From a virus, in UHGV virus genome UHGV-0224297: a DNA stretch of 15,109 nucleotides. One strand, given 5' to 3'. Positions 2,891 to 9,920 of the stretch are shown in pieces. The notes beneath the pieces were generated by a model, which was not told the DNA's origin, did no database searches, and was given only the letters and a program-made list of their open reading frames with translations. The position numbers and the translations under genes are program-made. Numbering within the stretch: position 1 is the first letter of the stretch; each line of letters begins with the position of its first letter.

Positions 2891-3469
2891 TTATACATCG
2901 AACCGATACTGCCGGGAGTTAATGAGGAACTCAGTATTCAGCTCAATCCATTCGAGTAATTCCCCCAACGGTAATCGGTTTGGGTTTTCTAACTCGATAG
3001 ATGCAACCGGATAAGAGTTTACTAATTCCGTAATCGCCTCAATCCCCTCTTGCGTTCCATCGTCTTCTAAGGTGATTGTAAACGGCATATCGGTACGTTT
3101 CGCATTAGGATTGTACAAACTGACTTTCGTTGCTTGCACAAACGCAGTCAGGTCGTCTCGCATAATGCGAATATCTGGCGCTAGAACTACCCAGAGATGT
3201 TGCCCTGGCTGGAGTTTACGTTTTGCGTAGTTTACGAAAGGACTTGCCGTCAAGTTCTCTAAACCACAACAGATGTTACGTAAACGAATTCCTCGCGGAT
3301 CTTTGTAATCCACGTCGAAAATCCCCACAGGTTCATTCGCTGCCCGCTTTATCAGAAAGGCTAATACCGTGTCCGCCCTTTCTGGTAAGGAAAGCCCAAC
3401 TCCCTCAAGCTCCCCATCGACGAGATTTTCCAACCAAACGTCTTTTCGCATTTCTATTAATCGGTACAC
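2891..3469 (-). CDS. hypothetical protein (192 aa)
   Basis: ORF with GTG start at 3467-3469 and GAGGTGG RBS 5 nt upstream. The first in-frame ATG, 18 nt downstream, has no RBS. Stop at 2891-2893 is followed by an intrinsic terminator. No recognisable motif. Confidence 0.6.
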   Translation of the reverse strand: MYRLIEMRKDVWLENLVDGELEGVGLSLPERADTVLAFLIKRAANEPVGIFDVDYKDPRGIRLRNICCGLENLTASPFVNYAKRKLQPGQHLWVVLAPDIRIMRDDLTAFVQATKVSLYNPNAKRTDMPFTITLEDDGTQEGIEAITELVNSYPVASIELENPNRLPLGELLEWIELNTEFLINSRQYRFDV

Positions 3470-3481
3470 GGTTCCACCTCA

Positions 3482-4255
3482 CTAATAATTAAGTTTTACA
3501 TCGGCAATAAACAGCAACTGTTTACCGTGTTGCTGCACTTCTTTCCAACCTAGCTTCATAGCAGCGTCAACAACATCTATCATGCTGTAACGAGACATCA
3601 ACGCGGTTGATTTTGTTCCTGACATTAAGTAGAGCGGCTCATTAGGGCAACGGTCGCGAGCATCAGGAAGTTCCCGAGAGACTGCTGATCCTTCGGGTAC
3701 GGTAACAACATGAATCACGGTAAATGGTCTCTTGTGGGTTAAATAGATACGAAACCCAACGTGTTCAGACTCATGAAAGACTTTCTTTACAACCACATCT
3801 TTTAGTGTCGTTTGAACATCAATCCCAGGTAATATCATGGATTCGCGAGAAACGAAACAACGACTATTTTCGACCGTGGAGAAATAATTACGTAACGGTA
3901 AACTGGCGTTATGATCGCGCAGTTTTTTGCTCAGTAGATCGAAGTTCAGTTCTTTAACTTTCTCTAGCCACTCTTTGGCTTGTTGAACGTAATAACTACC
4001 AACGGTGCGATAAGTTAATACCTTACCTGCGCTTACTTTCCAAAGTTTGATGGTTAGTGAGTTTGGCTTATAGCGACGATACTCACCCCGCGTATAGTTG
4101 ATGCGCTCGTAGCGCTCTACATCGTCAATCGGTGCAGATTCGACCGATTGTAACTGCAGCGTACGATCTAATCTATCGGCTAATAGTAGCGATGTTAGCG
4201 GACCTTCGATCATATACGGTTCGGTTTTAAAGATATCGTCTAAATGGACTTTCAT
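3482..4255 (-). CDS. GW-QLLF C-terminal motif family protein (257 aa)
   Basis: ATG at 4253-4255 with AAGGAA RBS. C-terminus LGWKEVQQHGKQLLFIADVKLNY. N-terminus MKVHLDDIF and internal LPGID ... GFRIY are shared with the 6069..6806 product. Confidence 0.75.
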   Translation of the reverse strand: MKVHLDDIFKTEPYMIEGPLTSLLLADRLDRTLQLQSVESAPIDDVERYERINYTRGEYRRYKPNSLTIKLWKVSAGKVLTYRTVGSYYVQQAKEWLEKVKELNFDLLSKKLRDHNASLPLRNYFSTVENSRCFVSRESMILPGIDVQTTLKDVVVKKVFHESEHVGFRIYLTHKRPFTVIHVVTVPEGSAVSRELPDARDRCPNEPLYLMSGTKSTALMSRYSMIDVVDAAMKLGWKEVQQHGKQLLFIADVKLNY

Positions 4256-4322
4256 TTCTATTTCCTTCTTAACAAAAGCCGCGACTAAAGCGCGGCAGTT
4301 AGAGAAAGTATATTTTCACTTA

Positions 4323-5474
4323 TTAAAGGTCAGCAACAAACAGTAGCTGACTGCCATACGGTTCGACAGATTTCCAACCGTAATCTTTACCGATCGTCGT
4401 TAAATGACTGGTAGTTAACTTTTTATCAATCGTCCGCAGATGTATCATTAGCGTATTGGACTCTGCCGCATCAAGTAACATCGCAGGTTCTTTTTCAGTG
4501 CGGTCGTCCGCTTTCGGGAAGAAACTGTAATATTGACTTTTGGGCAGATCGATTGACAACGTATAATTTTTCTTTGTAACGAATAACGCCATCCCTTCGA
4601 AATTGCAATCGAAACGATATTCCCAACCTGCTTCTGCTAAAACGTCTTTTAGCATTTCCATGACTTTAAGCTGATTAACACTAGGCAGTCGGTAAATTGC
4701 AAGACCACTTGGGAAAATGCGTATACCATCGACGACACTATCGGTGGTTTCGTCAATAAGTTCAGGATAACGTTGTGAGAAAATATGATCGCTCTTGCTT
4801 TTCTCTTCAACGTCACGAATGAATTGGGCTAATTCGTCTCTTAAGGCGGACATTTGATTTTCTCCTTTGTCTTCAATAATCAGGTGGGGTTCGCCGCTAA
4901 TTAAAATATGGTAAACGAGGTCGTCGGTAGAACGATAAGTGAGTTTGATAGCTTTATCACTTAACAATTCGTAGCGGAAGAAACTTTCGTACCAACTTAA
5001 GCCGAAATCGTTTTGTGTGAGTTCCTGCTCAACTTTGATGGTTTTTGCTTCAAAGCCGATTAACCCGCTTAATAACGCAAGTTCTGGTTTAGTTAAAATG
5101 GCCATGCCGTGAAAGGGCACTTGTTCAAGCTGAAAACATAAATTACTGACTTTACCACTTGGGAAGACTTTAAACATAATCTTCCGGCTGCTACTCTTTT
5201 CTCTAACAACGAGTTTACGGTAATTTAGTCCACAATTTGAGTAAACCGCGAACTGGTAACCTTCAATTTCTTCATCGTAAGTACAGACATCGACAGGCGC
5301 GATAATCTCATCGTATTCACTAAGTACACAGCAGCCCAAGTTATAACCAAACAACTCGCGTTGTAATGAAGACTCGATGGTTAAGCTTGGCAGAGGCCAA
5401 GTTCGATTATAGCATCTGTCCATCAGTTCTTTTAGGATCTTGGCATGTCCTGGTTTAGAAATAATATTTCGCAT
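4323..5474 (-). CDS. GW-QLLF C-terminal motif family protein (383 aa), with a second degenerate internal copy
   Basis: ATG at 5472-5474 with AAAGGAGAG RBS. C-terminus YGWKSVEPYGSQLLFVADL. A degenerate internal copy reads AEAGWEYRFDCNFEGMALFV. Confidence 0.75.
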   Translation of the reverse strand: MRNIISKPGHAKILKELMDRCYNRTWPLPSLTIESSLQRELFGYNLGCCVLSEYDEIIAPVDVCTYDEEIEGYQFAVYSNCGLNYRKLVVREKSSSRKIMFKVFPSGKVSNLCFQLEQVPFHGMAILTKPELALLSGLIGFEAKTIKVEQELTQNDFGLSWYESFFRYELLSDKAIKLTYRSTDDLVYHILISGEPHLIIEDKGENQMSALRDELAQFIRDVEEKSKSDHIFSQRYPELIDETTDSVVDGIRIFPSGLAIYRLPSVNQLKVMEMLKDVLAEAGWEYRFDCNFEGMALFVTKKNYTLSIDLPKSQYYSFFPKADDRTEKEPAMLLDAAESNTLMIHLRTIDKKLTTSHLTTIGKDYGWKSVEPYGSQLLFVADL

Positions 5475-5503
5475 TTTTACTCTCCTTTAGGGTTTTTCGT
5501 TAC

Positions 5504-6043
5504 TTAAGCAGGGTAAGCTAAGAATAATAACTGCTGGCCGAGTTTACGTACGGTATGCCAGCCGTGCGCTTTTGCTGTTTCTACTAATGTTTCCCAATCG
5601 TCAACGTTGCAACCGTCTTTTTTCAGTTTTGTAAGTAGTGTCTCTGCTTCTTTATCTGTCAGCAATAATCCTGGGTTACTTAACGTACACGTAAGAGGGT
5701 TAGGGAAATACGCGTAGCGTCTTACAAAAGTAAAGTCTACGAGATAGTGTGCTTTCCCCGTGTCTAGAAGCGTAACAACATCCACGCCGCCGTCGTAGGA
5801 CGCGCTCGTCACTTTCCATCCGGTACCGGAAAACAGTTGACTGAATAATTTGGTAAAGATATCCCCGGAACCGCGATAATAAAGCACAGCATCTTCGTTG
5901 ATTTTTTCTATTTCAATACCAGTGATCGTTGTACCCGGTTGGATAACGTTAGACAATATACTGTACGGGCTTTCAAAACGATGTTTACCCACACCCAGGT
6001 TAACAAACTTAATAGCTTGTTGTTTCATTTCGATACTAATCAT
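5504..6043 (-). CDS. GW-QLLF C-terminal motif family protein (179 aa)
   Basis: ATG at 6041-6043 with AAAGGAGAAA RBS. C-terminus AHGWHTVRKLGQQLLFLAYPA. An internal GW is also present (SGTGWKVTSASYDGG). Confidence 0.75.
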   Translation of the reverse strand: MISIEMKQQAIKFVNLGVGKHRFESPYSILSNVIQPGTTITGIEIEKINEDAVLYYRGSGDIFTKLFSQLFSGTGWKVTSASYDGGVDVVTLLDTGKAHYLVDFTFVRRYAYFPNPLTCTLSNPGLLLTDKEAETLLTKLKKDGCNVDDWETLVETAKAHGWHTVRKLGQQLLFLAYPA

Positions 6044-6068
6044 GATATTTTCTCCTTTAGGTTTTTAC

Positions 6069-6806
6069 TTACGCGGTTTTAATTAACAGCAGATAGTCCT
6101 TCGTAAACTCAGCACAACTCCACCCTCTCATCGTGGCGATTTTACGAAGATCAATTTTCTCGTGATATTTCAATAAGGGATCGTCTGAGTTAATCTCAAC
6201 CAGGTGGGTGGCTTTAGAAATCGTTTCCACATCTGGGATCTGTTTTGCTAAGTCGGATGCAATCAGTTCAATAACGCGGTAACCCTTTAACACAGAAACA
6301 TAGATGCGCAAACCATATAGCGTGCCCTCGTCTTCTAATGGACAAAGATCGATGCCGGGTCCAAGCAGTGATAACTCGACGTTATCGGGAAGGTTTTCTG
6401 CATTTCGGAGTAACCCTATCCCATTTCTAAACAGAGGGAAGTAAGAGAATAGTGGTGGTAAAGCCCAACCGTTCCCAATAAGCACATCATCGATACTAGT
6501 AGGCGTGTTCGCAAGAAGACGAATGTGGTCAGCCACAACTTCAAGTTCGGCATCACTGATCAACTTATAGATTAACATGACACTGGTTTCGGTATTAATA
6601 ACGAAGAAGACGCGGTTGGCGTAACTGCCTATCACGTATTCGTCAATCATACAGTCGATAACGTCACTGTCTGGATAATCTTCAGGTTTAATTGTTCCAG
6701 CATCGATTAACTTAGCAGGTTGCGATTGTTTTAATAGTTCGTTAACAACAGTAGAAGAAAGTTCTAAACTGGTGTTAGTAAAGATATCGTCTAATAATTC
6801 TCTCAT
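6069..6806 (-). CDS. GW-QLLF family protein, divergent member (245 aa)
   Basis: ATG at 6804-6806 with a weak RBS; first gene after the divergent control region. C-terminus RGWSCAEFTKDYLLLIKTA is a degenerate form of the motif. N-terminus MRELLDDIF and internal LLGPGID ... GLRIY match the 3482..4255 product. Confidence 0.7.
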   Translation of the reverse strand: MRELLDDIFTNTSLELSSTVVNELLKQSQPAKLIDAGTIKPEDYPDSDVIDCMIDEYVIGSYANRVFFVINTETSVMLIYKLISDAELEVVADHIRLLANTPTSIDDVLIGNGWALPPLFSYFPLFRNGIGLLRNAENLPDNVELSLLGPGIDLCPLEDEGTLYGLRIYVSVLKGYRVIELIASDLAKQIPDVETISKATHLVEINSDDPLLKYHEKIDLRKIATMRGWSCAEFTKDYLLLIKTA

Positions 6807-6901
6807 GATTTACTCGCTAATCTCAATAAAGGGGAGTCTATTATTATGGATTGCAGAAGAGGAATAAGGAAGTCACTACGTTCCTCTGGGAAGAGTATGT
6901 C

Positions 6902-6918
6902 GGTATACTACGTATACC
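6902..6918. promoter_or_regulatory. inverted repeat GGTATAC-TAC-GTATACC (7-3-7), candidate operator
   Basis: Perfect 7-bp arms with a 3-bp spacer. A third GTATAC lies at 6935-6940 and a GGTATCC at 6963-6969. A TATAAATA (T4 late-promoter-like) reads on the minus strand at 6924-6931. Confidence 0.35.
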
Positions 6919-7107
6919 TCCGCTATTTATATCCGTATACATAATGCCCCCTACCCCCTACCGGTATCCCGAGTAGCAGAATAAAGGGGCAGACTGTAAA
7001 ATTTTAGTACCTGTTATCGGAAGGTACTAAATGGAGTGTAGTCTTTAAGCCGTTTGAGCAGCTCATTGAGACTTTCTTTTTTAGTAGACATGATCTGTCA
7101 CCCCAAA

Positions 7108-7116
7108 TGGTATAAT
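7108..7116 (+). promoter_or_regulatory. candidate sigma70 extended -10 box (TGGTATAAT)
   Basis: Exact TGnTATAAT at 7108-7116 on the plus strand. No good -35 (TAGACA at 7085-7090 is 20 bp away). Would start transcription near 7123, toward the 7225 gene. Confidence 0.4.
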
Positions 7117-7143
7117 CAATCCGTTTCGAATGAAACGTGTCCG

Positions 7144-7172
7144 TAGGGACTGAAGTGCCAGTTCAGTCCCTA
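7144..7172. other. strong stem-loop (11-bp stem, 7-nt loop)
   Basis: TAGGGACTGAA-GTGCCAG-TTCAGTCCCTA. No U-tract on either side, so it is not a canonical terminator. Lies immediately adjacent to element copy 2. Confidence 0.55.
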
Positions 7173-7173
7173 T

Positions 7174-7199
7174 TCACTTAAGTAATATATATCTGAATT
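7174..7199. promoter_or_regulatory. conserved element copy 2 (core TAAGTAATATATATCTGAA)
   Basis: The 19-bp core at 7179-7197 is identical to copy 1. It sits 28 nt upstream of the ATG at 7225, next to the 7144-7172 hairpin, in the divergent control region. Confidence 0.5.
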
Positions 7200-7224: not shown

Positions 7225-8190
7225 ATGGAGAAATCCAGTGTTGATTTTTTCTCAATTGGTATCGTCGCGGAAGACAAACCCCGTGGTACAGATCGGGTAA
7301 AAGTGATACCAATTGAAACCAACTTTGCTAACCCTACCGTGGTGCAATCTGTTTCTTCAGCAACTGAAAAGACGCATGAAACATCTGGTGCAACAGATAA
7401 CCTAACCATTAAGACGGGTAACACGATAACAGCAAAGTGGTGGAAGTTTAACTCCAACCGAATTAATTCCCCTGACGTTAAACGAGAAGATTACGTTATC
7501 TTGTTACGTTTGGGGAAAACCGATATTTATTTTTGGATTGATCTGAACTTCGCTAACGTTAAGCGATTAGAGGATGCGGTTTATGCGTGGTCTGCTGATT
7601 CTGAAAACCAGATGGCGGATGACCTGTCCAATGCGTATGTGTTGAATATCTCGACGATTGACAAACATATCACGCTAAGAACAAGTATGGTGAACGGTGA
7701 GAAAGCGGCGTGGTTGTTTCAGTTTGATAATGCAAACGGTACGTGGCAGTGTGTTGACCATAAAGGAAACAAGTATTACATTAACTCGGTTGAAGATGAT
7801 CTCGGGTTTGAGAATGCGATGCTTTCAAAAGTGAACATCAACAAAGAAGATGCGTTCATTTATTCAAAGCGTTCTATTAACCTGGAAACGAAAACAATTA
7901 ATGAAAAATGCGAAGTTCGCAATACGGAAGCAGCGAAATCCGTTACGTTTAAAACGCAAACCTGGTTAACGGAAGCAGGGAGTTCGACAACATTTAAAAC
8001 GCCGAACTTTAAACAAGAAGGGAATGAAGCGATGTTCACCGGTAATCTGGAAATCGCTAAGAACTTCAAATACGGTGGTACGGGCAAAGGCGTCGGTGTC
8101 TTTACGGTTAAAGATGCCGTTATTTCTGGTATTACCTTTAGCGTTCACATTCACCAAGGTAAACATGGCCCGACATCACCTCCGCAATAA
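7225..8190 (+). CDS. putative baseplate central spike protein (321 aa; function tentative)
   Basis: ATG at 7225-7227 with AAGGA RBS (7212-7216). The N-terminal region (GIVAEDKPRGTDRVKV ... KWWKF ... DYVILLRLG) resembles, from memory, the OB-fold of P2 gpV-type spike proteins. The C-terminus VHIHQGKHGPTSPPQ resembles the His-rich metal-binding tip of such spikes. The coding call is firm; the functional call is not. Confidence 0.65.
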   Translation: MEKSSVDFFSIGIVAEDKPRGTDRVKVIPIETNFANPTVVQSVSSATEKTHETSGATDNLTIKTGNTITAKWWKFNSNRINSPDVKREDYVILLRLGKTDIYFWIDLNFANVKRLEDAVYAWSADSENQMADDLSNAYVLNISTIDKHITLRTSMVNGEKAAWLFQFDNANGTWQCVDHKGNKYYINSVEDDLGFENAMLSKVNINKEDAFIYSKRSINLETKTINEKCEVRNTEAAKSVTFKTQTWLTEAGSSTTFKTPNFKQEGNEAMFTGNLEIAKNFKYGGTGKGVGVFTVKDAVISGITFSVHIHQGKHGPTSPPQ

Positions 8191-8609: not shown

Positions 8610-8667
8610 AAAAAAAAAACGTGCTACTCCTACCCTCTTAGAGGGTAGGAGGTTACTTTATTTTTTT
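8610..8667. terminator. bidirectional intrinsic terminator between convergent genes
   Basis: Perfect 11-bp stem CTCCTACCCTC-TTA-GAGGGTAGGAG (8627-8651). Flanked by an A10 run (8610-8619) on one side and a T-rich run (8652-8667) on the other. Sits between the DUF1471 stop (8606) and the minus-strand gene stop (8658). Confidence 0.8.
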
Positions 8668-9920
8668 CGTGCTTTAAAGCGATGCATTTCTAAATACACT
8701 TTTTCCCAGGGACCGAATGGACCAACGATTGCTTGAGCATCGTTAATCTTCTTCTGATTATACCACCGGGCTTCACGAAAGACGTAGTTTTGACTGTCGA
8801 ATTCGGTAGTGTTAAATACCCACTCACCTTCCTCCCACGTAGGCCAATAACCTACCGTCTTACCAAATCGATTATTTAAGTACCCTAATGGTTTTTCAGA
8901 ATCAGGATCGTTGGGGTCCTTGAGGTAACAGCGTCCCCAAACGGCGTTATGCGAAACACCCACAACTTCTTCTTCTAAATACGGATTATCTACCGTAAAG
9001 ATAAAAGAGGATTCGTGGAGTAAAAGCGCCTTCAGTGTTTCAGGGTTACGAATACGTTGAACGTTGGTAGGCGATGATAAATCCCCTACACCGATGCTAT
9101 CCCAGTCGTAATAACGGCGGGTTTCCAGAACGGTCCGTGCAAGATCAAAATTCGGTAAAGAAATCATGATCGCACGGTCAGAGAAATAACCGTCCGGGGG
9201 CAACCAACGTAACAATCCGCCTATGACGAAACCCACGGTTTTCCCCGTAATAGACTCAGGCAGCGATATCATTAACGTGGAGTAATAGTCGCGTGTAGTG
9301 TCGAGCTTGTTTAGCGTAAGGTTGGCGATTGGATAGGTTTTAACATTCCCTAGCTGACCAAAAACCATACAGCCAATATCTGGCGTACATGCTCTCCGTA
9401 CGATTTTACCGGCCCCAGGCAATCGAACACCTACGGTATCCGTCTGGTGTGGTACCCATTGACCGTTAATGTTGTACAGCACACTATTACGGTATTTGTC
9501 TTTCCACTTGTCCTCACAAACGACGACAACGTCATCAGCATCGTCTAAGCTGAAATCTTGACTGTGGTGGTACCCTGGTGGACACAGATATGTTTCGACA
9601 GGTACATCGGCATTAATTGATTGGTAGTGTGCCCAACTGAATTCCAGTTTCGGCAATCCAGCCTTTAGAGTGGGAATGACGTTTCCGGCCTTTTCGTTTA
9701 ACCAATCTTGTAAAGTGTCTGTTCGGTTTTGTAGTTCAGCAAGATGGTATTGACTGACTAACGTATAGTCTTTACCAAGTGCACTTAAACCGATCTCAAA
9801 GGTGTGGTAGTCTGAACACAACGTAGTTAAGGGTTGCGTGACATCGATGGCTCCCCAGGTACGGGACTCTCGAGAGAAGCCAAAAGCGCTGTCGGGCCGC
9901 ACTTGATAAGCAGTAGTCAC
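8658..9920 (-). CDS. hypothetical protein (420 aa), Trp/Tyr-rich, possibly structural or enzymatic
   Basis: Long ORF with GTG start at 9918-9920 and a GAGG box about 10 nt upstream; no in-frame ATG near the start. Stop at 8658-8660 lies inside the bidirectional terminator region. Transcribed opposite to both flanking plus-strand genes. Confidence 0.65.
   Translation of the reverse strand: MTTAYQVRPDSAFGFSRESRTWGAIDVTQPLTTLCSDYHTFEIGLSALGKDYTLVSQYHLAELQNRTDTLQDWLNEKAGNVIPTLKAGLPKLEFSWAHYQSINADVPVETYLCPPGYHHSQDFSLDDADDVVVVCEDKWKDKYRNSVLYNINGQWVPHQTDTVGVRLPGAGKIVRRACTPDIGCMVFGQLGNVKTYPIANLTLNKLDTTRDYYSTLMISLPESITGKTVGFVIGGLLRWLPPDGYFSDRAIMISLPNFDLARTVLETRRYYDWDSIGVGDLSSPTNVQRIRNPETLKALLLHESSFIFTVDNPYLEEEVVGVSHNAVWGRCYLKDPNDPDSEKPLGYLNNRFGKTVGYWPTWEEGEWVFNTTEFDSQNYVFREARWYNQKKINDAQAIVGPFGPWEKVYLEMHRFKARKK

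Follow-up and report, generated by a model that had tools for sequence, protein, structure and literature searches.

The window analyzed here, a stretch of 15,109 nucleotides (nt) from the virus genome UHGV-0224297, carries an array of four tandem genes on its minus strand (positions 3482 to 6806), whose products appear to share a C-terminal domain and differ in their N-terminal parts. Sequence comparison assigns the array proteins to the family of gp175 of phage SPN3US, a family that is already in the databases, unannotated. The array is best explained as a lineage-specific fourfold tandem expansion of this jumbo-phage gene family, and we tentatively propose that its products are early, modular factors for host takeover or counterdefense. 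The open reading frames (ORFs) of the array are referred to as p245, p179, p383, and p257, and the next gene as p192; their coordinates are collected in Table 1.

The shared C-terminal domain

A first-pass annotation of the window had drawn attention to four adjacent minus-strand genes with near-identical tails, and both the ORFs and the tail sequences it quoted are exactly as it described them. In the six-frame translation of the window, the loose motif GW-x6/7-[GK]-x-[QY]-LL-[FL]-[ILV] has four matches, all of them at the four C termini. For the strict motif, 2e-8 occurrences would be expected in 2123 amino acids (aa), and it appeared in 0 of 20,000 shuffles, which places it beyond chance. 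Among the window proteins, BLASTP relates p257 to p383 (E=7e-10 over 142 aa), p179 to p383 (E=3e-9 over 116 aa), and p245 to p257 (E=4e-4 over 140 aa).

When alignments of the orthologues are compared with hhalign, the similarity extends well beyond the tails. Residues 3-178 of p179 correspond to residues 208-383 of p383 (97% probability), and residues 173-383 of p383 correspond to residues 75-253 of p257 (96%), with 73% for p179 and p257 and only E=1.6e-3 for p245 and p257. As p179 aligns almost in its entirety to the C-terminal part of p383, the shared element covers some 130-175 aa, of which the tail is the best-conserved end, and is not confined to a short C-terminal tail of about 20 aa. 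Three of the proteins, p179, p383, and p257, are on this sequence evidence clearly related paralogues; they score 99-130 bits against the family profile, and their C-terminal ends match entries of the PHROG database.

The case of p245 is weaker, and here the initial claim of four paralogues holds for three clear members, with the fourth, whose tail it had called degenerate, only marginally significant by sequence. The tail of p245 is degenerate (RGWSCAEFTKDYLLLIKTA). Against a profile built without p245-type sequences, p245 scores 5.8 bits, where the best of 2000 shuffles reached 4.9 and all unrelated ORFs scored lower, and the best non-self match of a p245 orthologue profile is p257 (E=3.6e-4). 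About 70 p245 orthologues were found, in contigs of about 225 kilobases (kb). The AlphaFold2 model of p245 (predicted local distance difference test [pLDDT] 75) has the same order of C-terminal elements as the model of p179, and both models read beta-beta-beta-alpha, loop, then beta-alpha-alpha-beta-beta. It is therefore probable that p245 is a degenerate family member, marginal by sequence and supported by the predicted order of secondary-structure elements.

Within the shared unit, a core of about 65 aa can be delimited. It begins with [ILF]-P-D-x2-3-[DE]-R-[ST]-x-N-[DE]-P-x-Y-L-M-S, continues with a helix, a linker of about 7-40 aa and a second helix ending in G-W, and closes after that helix with V-x3-G-x-Q-L-L-F-[ILV]-[AS]. 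The core sits at the C terminus of proteins of 213-412 aa and stands alone in proteins of 72-125 aa from other large phages, and the existence of these stand-alone proteins marks it as an autonomous domain. It was considered whether a stand-alone core might be the second half of a gene broken from an upstream gene of about 280 aa (as the arrangement in L010 and L016 might suggest), an idea we rejected when the upstream proteins proved to have no relation to one another or to the family.

The model of p179 has a pLDDT of 73 overall and of 81-93 in the core, which is predicted to fold as beta-alpha-alpha-beta-beta, with the QLLF[ILV]A segment as its last strand. The first-pass annotation had suggested that the shared tail might serve virion packaging or recognition by a protease or chaperone; the position of the segment as a strand of a confidently modeled domain argues against a peptide of any of these kinds and against a degron. 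The polar loop near the start of the core varies among the four proteins. It is canonical in p257, which retains the full core motif (LPDARDRCPNEPLYLMS...GWKEVQQHGKQLLFIAD), and in p383, and it is lost in p179, where the N-terminal loop of the core has become FPNPLTCTLSNP, and in p245. This pattern of loss suggests sub- or neofunctionalization after duplication.

In agreement with the initial description of differing N-terminal regions, no significant relation was seen among the extensions that precede the shared unit in p383 (about 207 aa), p257, and p245 (about 100-110 aa each), or between any of these and the unit itself. No homologues of the p383 N-module were found outside the lineage, the search elsewhere giving one partial orthologue. 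Across the family, N-terminal modules range from 0 to about 350 aa, and in the Derbicus-like members the last 62 aa or so are near-identical, with N-terminal parts that fall into separate 50%-identity clusters.

Scans of the four proteins, their neighbors, and ten distant members against Pfam, NCBIfam, and PADLOC gave nothing above threshold, so that the motif, which the first-pass annotation had not recognized as a known family, belongs to no curated family, and no profile search assigned the proteins to unrelated known families above threshold. Profile searches against PDB sequences gave no match, and no PDB fold match was obtained either. All structural matches in BFVD were uncharacterized jumbo-phage proteins.

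Table 1. Coordinates of the array genes, their cores, and the associated transcription signals in the window
Feature	Position	Strand	Description
Early promoter motif	7179-7197	minus	phiKZ-type (virion RNA polymerase) motif TTCAGATATATATTACTTA(AGTGA), upstream of array
p245	6069-6806	minus	245 aa; opening gene of array; acidic (isoelectric point [pI] 4.5); most divergent; probable degenerate core
p245 core	~6072-6245	minus	probable equivalent of p257 core
p179	5504-6043	minus	179 aa; nearly bare shared unit (~175 aa); canonical tail
p179 core	5507-5713	minus	equivalent of p257 core
p383	4323-5474	minus	383 aa; N-module aa 1-207 (~4854-5474) and shared unit aa 208-383 (~4326-4853)
p383 core	4326-4526	minus	equivalent of p257 core
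Hairpin and T-tract	4278-4296	minus	GCCGCG-N7-CGCGGC; in 67-nt p383-p257 spacer (4256-4322); terminator/attenuator-like
p257	3482-4255	minus	257 aa; basic (pI 9.1); closest of the four to single-copy orthologues
p257 core	3485-3676	minus	last 64 aa; from core alignment
p192	2891-3469	minus	last gene of unit, co-transcribed; homologue of SPN3US gp177 and Asesino gp197 (phrog_20879), "function unknown"
Intrinsic terminator	2867-2886	minus	strong; ends transcription unit; kept in relatives with compensatory stem changes
Second promoter motif copy	2815-2833	minus	19-nt TTCAGATATATATTACTTA, after array's terminator

The gp175-like family and the history of the array

The structural genes of the window share about 73-75% nucleotide identity with SPN3US and the Erwinia phages Asesino and phiEaH2, and the window derives from a jumbo phage distantly related to these three. 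Megablast matched the array region itself to none of 50,697 phage records. Orthologues of the array proteins are encoded on contigs of 223-227 kb in isolate assemblies (Salmonella, E. coli, Shigella, and Enterobacter) and in gut metagenomes, which suggests an uncultured, widespread jumbo-phage lineage that often accompanies enterobacterial isolates.

The first-pass annotation had regarded the family as undescribed. It is instead that of SPN3US gp175 (SPN3US_0175, YP_009153469.1, 412 aa) and its homologues, and it is split over five PHROGs (26772, 33648, 24489, 18480, and 22167), all labeled "unknown function." For the C-terminal regions of p257 and p383, four or five of these PHROGs were matched, in each case through the C-terminal end of the profile. 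When 1.84e9 representative proteins were searched exhaustively with HMMER, only 27 family members were found, and a broadened core profile gave 17 matches, all on phage contigs of 157-280 kb. In these searches the family is narrow and restricted to jumbo phages. Our literature search found no paper describing gp175 or its homologues.

Genomic position provides a second line of evidence. In SPN3US, Phobos, Asesino, and Machina, the family gene (with Phobos gp176, Asesino gp195, and Machina gp185, of 319, 223, and 235 aa, as the positional homologues of gp175) heads an operon that diverges from a baseplate assembly gene (phrog_3216). The window has the same layout, with the baseplate gene on the plus strand (7225-8190) and the array on the minus strand, so that the array occupies the syntenic position. 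The gp175 homologues thus have in common with the window the C-terminal core motif, a place as first or second gene of the operon diverging from the baseplate gene, and an early-type promoter motif nearby; of the four window proteins, p257 aligns with them best. They differ from the array in their N-terminal regions, which are unrelated, with protein lengths of 223-412 aa, and in copy number.

Where tblastn was used, each cultured genome had one such place. It holds a single copy in SPN3US, Asesino, and Phobos, three copies in Machina, and four in the window lineage. The additional Machina members, gp186 and gp187, were recognized by profile search (36 and 30 bits), which makes three tandem copies (3497-5553 of L022). 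In Machina, gp185 is canonical in the polar loop and gp186 and gp187 are degenerate, a division of the same kind as in the window lineage. Every contig of that lineage that was examined has the genes in one fixed order, 245-179-383-257 followed by p192, and the identity of the orthologues ranges down to about 62%.

The divergence among the copies is old and has proceeded under constraint, as the first-pass annotation had supposed. The DNA of the tail regions is only 49-54% identical among the three canonical copies and 32-42% identical between these and p245, and it is from these low values that we judge the divergence to be old. All four genes are under purifying selection, with ratios of nonsynonymous to synonymous substitution (dN/dS) of 0.08-0.5, and orthologues of all four are kept under such selection in at least seven independent contigs. 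The ratio is 0.08-0.3 in the core, against 0.15-0.5 in the N-terminal parts, and p257 is the most constrained (0.1-0.2).

The mosaic structure of p383 adds a different kind of information. The relatives L014 and L015 differ greatly in aa 1-205 and are nearly identical thereafter, and in L008 the pattern is reversed. As divergence is discordant between the N-terminal 205 aa or so and the C-terminal 175 aa or so, the N-module and the shared unit have been exchanged independently. It would follow from these comparisons that variation in the array arises through module exchange and copy-number change and not through gene-wide positive selection. The description of the paralogues as diversifying can therefore be kept with respect to modules and copy number, but not for selection across whole genes, which is purifying.

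Predicted early transcription and the surrounding genes

The array lies behind a motif of the type used for early transcription in phiKZ-like phages. The published early-promoter consensus, to which the virion RNA polymerase responds, is TATATTAC for phiKZ, TTTRARR-BTATATTACDWHDGTG for 201phi2-1, and TTTCARRYAKATATTATYWAAGTGWA for N1M2 (PMC7058600, PMC7598289). We took as the mark of an early unit an AT-rich conserved motif that contains TATATTAC, lies about 10 nt upstream of the start site, and stands at the head of the operon; the motif upstream of the array fits the published consensus and stands at the operon head. The window has two exact copies of TTCAGATATATATTACTTA, both on the minus strand, where 0.01 would be expected. 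The motif is kept at both places in relatives, with the array copy in the same place in L008, L011, and L014. The same motif is found upstream of Phobos gp176, a perfect one lies between Machina gp185 and gp186, and SPN3US gp175 is preceded, at a distance of about 100 nt, by a degenerate copy. Early genes of these phages are transcribed by the virion RNA polymerase, and SPN3US and Asesino have been shown experimentally to form phage nuclei (PMC13282480). Given a phiKZ-type promoter before the array, transcription of the array by the injected polymerase at the start of infection would be anticipated.

Seven relatives carry the p383-p257 spacer, with the hairpin listed in Table 1, in almost invariant form, although synonymous divergence in the flanking coding DNA reaches more than 1. 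The spacer probably serves as a conserved site of attenuation, termination, or processing, dividing the three extra paralogues from the ancestral pair of p257 and p192. Between the early promoter and p245, a leader of about 365 nt (6807-7178, minus strand) contains ORFs of 25 aa (7014-7091) and 32 aa (6844-6942). In L011, L012, and L015 the 32-aa ORF runs in frame into the p245 orthologue as a single protein of 278-279 aa, and in the window stop codons and a frame difference keep the two apart. The window leader contains no remnant of SPN3US gp174 or gp176. An Rfam scan of the window gave no match.

The last gene of the unit, p192, corresponds to SPN3US gp177 and Asesino gp197, not to gp176. 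It was considered as an obligate partner of the family and rejected as such, as the two are found together in only 31 of about 57 records. The genes that follow the family member in SPN3US (gp176-179; 9331-11679 of L002) and in Asesino (gp196-199; 4672-7011 of L023) encode proteins of 175-195 aa each and are pairwise conserved.

The proposal that the array proteins are packaged in the virion can be evaluated through SPN3US. The mass-spectrometry tables of its virion include gp168-171 and gp173, with gp193 as the next entry; gp175 is absent although its neighbors gp171 and gp173 are present, and it is therefore not counted as a virion protein. The virion paralogue families of SPN3US are A (gp53/54), B (gp83, 138-154, 161, and 237), and C (gp168-170) (PMC5694885), and gp175 is not among their listed members. 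These families resemble the gp175-like family in being multicopy and lineage variable in the same group of jumbo phages (PMC5694885). They differ from it as late proteins of the virion head or tail fibers, whereas gp175 is missing from the virion tables, the gp175-like genes lie behind an early promoter, and no sequence relationship links the two. By analogy with SPN3US gp175, and from the placement of the array behind an early promoter, the array proteins are unlikely to be packaged.

Several other genes near the array, or near its relatives, deserve mention. Downstream of the array's terminator, five consecutive small minus-strand ORFs (558-2760; 153, 130, 161, 136, and 129 aa) have signal-peptide-like N termini and form their own unit behind the second promoter copy; read from their sequences, they would be early phage proteins that are secreted or periplasmic. 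The 129- and 136-aa proteins are weakly similar (E=8e-4), no Pfam match was found in the block, and the L008 orthologue of the 153-aa protein is tagged PF27224 (YfjT). On the plus strand, a small BhsA/YdgH-like gene (PF07338; 8379-8606) lies between the virion gene at 8658-9920 and the baseplate gene and is kept in SPN3US (gp172) and relatives. In L020 and L021 (5948-8300), a stand-alone core gene (99 aa) is found two genes downstream of a Tad2-like gene (PF11195, anti-Thoeris) and beside a glutaredoxin gene. Genes for a macro-domain protein and an acetyltransferase lie further along the SPN3US operon.

Possible roles of the array proteins

When these results are placed into the context of infection, a role in host takeover or counterdefense is the reading that we favor, with the reserve due to a proposal that falls a little short of being probable. 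The inference draws on the early placement of the array, the non-virion status of gp175 in SPN3US, the variable copy number, the swapping of modules, and weak hints from the neighborhood (the Tad2-like, macro-domain, and acetyltransferase genes). As the first unit behind an early promoter, the array would be transcribed by the injected virion RNA polymerase as infection begins, and its products might then act early in the host cytoplasm. It is conceivable that the constant C-terminal domain contributes an activity common to all the proteins, by docking to one conserved partner or by self-association, and that the variable N-modules confer target specificity.

A number of points weigh against this proposal. 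Neither the curated, PDB, nor structural searches gave a fold or family match that would support any activity. Early timing is read from the promoter motif, and non-virion status is taken from SPN3US only. The counterdefense component is drawn from context and evolutionary pattern, and other accessory functions would show the same; moreover, gene-wide dN/dS shows no sign of positive selection. The first-pass annotation had seen here a candidate for an undescribed system, but nothing points to a multicomponent system or to a packaging signal.

A more specific form of the host-takeover proposal, which we regard as quite improbable, holds that the C-terminal domain is a docking module that brings interchangeable N-terminal effectors to one conserved hub at the start of chimallivirus infection. 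Copy number and N-modules would then be matched to the defenses of the host. Candidate hubs would be, for example, the early infection vesicle, the nascent nuclear shell, the import machinery, or a conserved host complex. If true, this would amount to an unrecognized modular scheme of effector targeting in nucleus-forming jumbo phages.

The main rival for the role of the C-terminal domain is oligomerization. On this account, which we consider unlikely, the domain would mainly be an oligomerization module, through which the paralogues (or homo-oligomers of the single-copy proteins) form one homo- or hetero-oligomeric complex that displays different N-modules, as the subunits of one machine and not as independent effectors. 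The most conserved segment, V-x3-G-x-QLLF[ILV]A, is predicted to be a strongly hydrophobic hairpin at the C-terminal edge of a small sheet of three strands, which in the stand-alone 72-aa proteins would have no other packing surface, and the four co-transcribed copies are all kept in every relative examined. However, the conserved polar loop, P-D-x-x-D-R-S-x-N-E-P, is more like a site for a ligand or partner than an interface, and the single-copy phages manage with one protein.

Nucleic acid binding is less likely, and we would call it improbable. It would require the shared unit to combine a degenerate PD-(D/E)xK (Mrr-like) fold with a winged-helix-like domain, making the array proteins early regulators of DNA or RNA, or inactivated nucleases. 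The middle of p179, and with it the middle of the shared unit, does show a weak local resemblance to Mrr-type nucleases in two libraries, with a compatible predicted topology. Yet assignment to the Mrr_cat family (PF04471) was rejected, as the score was 14.5 bits against a cutoff of 21, neither orthologues nor paralogues conserve the acidic and lysine catalytic positions, and no significant structural match was obtained. A winged helix-turn-helix was likewise rejected, given the variable linker between the helices, the lack of a basic helix, and a core pI of 5.1-9.4.

It is very improbable that the C terminus is a targeting signal, whether for bringing variable cargo into the virion or for recognition by a protease or chaperone, or that the proteins are associated with the baseplate. 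Such a function could be imagined from the position of the genes next to baseplate and tail fiber genes, and the jumbo phages of this group package many proteins (PMC5694885). Against it stand the absence of SPN3US gp175 from virion tables that do list gp168-171 and gp173, and from families A-C; the orientation of the array genes, on the strand opposite to the structural genes and behind an early promoter; and the model of the tail as a structured beta-hairpin inside a folded domain and not a disordered peptide. That the resemblance is a product of chance or composition, or that the ORFs are not genes, has a negligible probability and is refuted for three members, as only the weakness of the p245 match speaks for it and the motif expectation, the E values of 1e-9 to 1e-10, and the conservation of orthologues of all four in at least seven contigs speak against it.

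The combination of a constant domain with variable modules is familiar from other viral protein families, such as the internal proteins of T4 with their capsid-targeting sequence and tail fibers with a conserved anchor and exchangeable tips. The array shares with these a conserved module, interchangeable modules, and recombination at the junction, as in the p383 mosaic. It differs in that the constant part is predicted to be a C-terminal folded domain and in that its proteins would be early and, by analogy with SPN3US, absent from the virion.

Returning to the host-takeover proposal, the array is less novel than first claimed, as homologues exist in all SPN3US-like phages and in PHROGs. Jumbo phages are known to carry accessory gene families that vary between lineages, and the array belongs with these. 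What is new is the recognition of a domain in place of a tail, its recurrent expansion, and its placement behind an early promoter; no new mechanism is revealed, and function is inferred. Nonetheless, five unannotated PHROGs and several small stand-alone proteins can be united into one domain family, within a predicted early unit and at a fixed genomic position, in which copy number (1, 3, or 4) and N-modules change between clades and the C-terminal domain stays constant. SPN3US gp175 offers a testable handle on this family, in a phage with amber-mutant genetics. Uncharacterized early genes abound in nucleus-forming jumbo phages, and it is probably on them that the survival of an infection through its first minutes depends.

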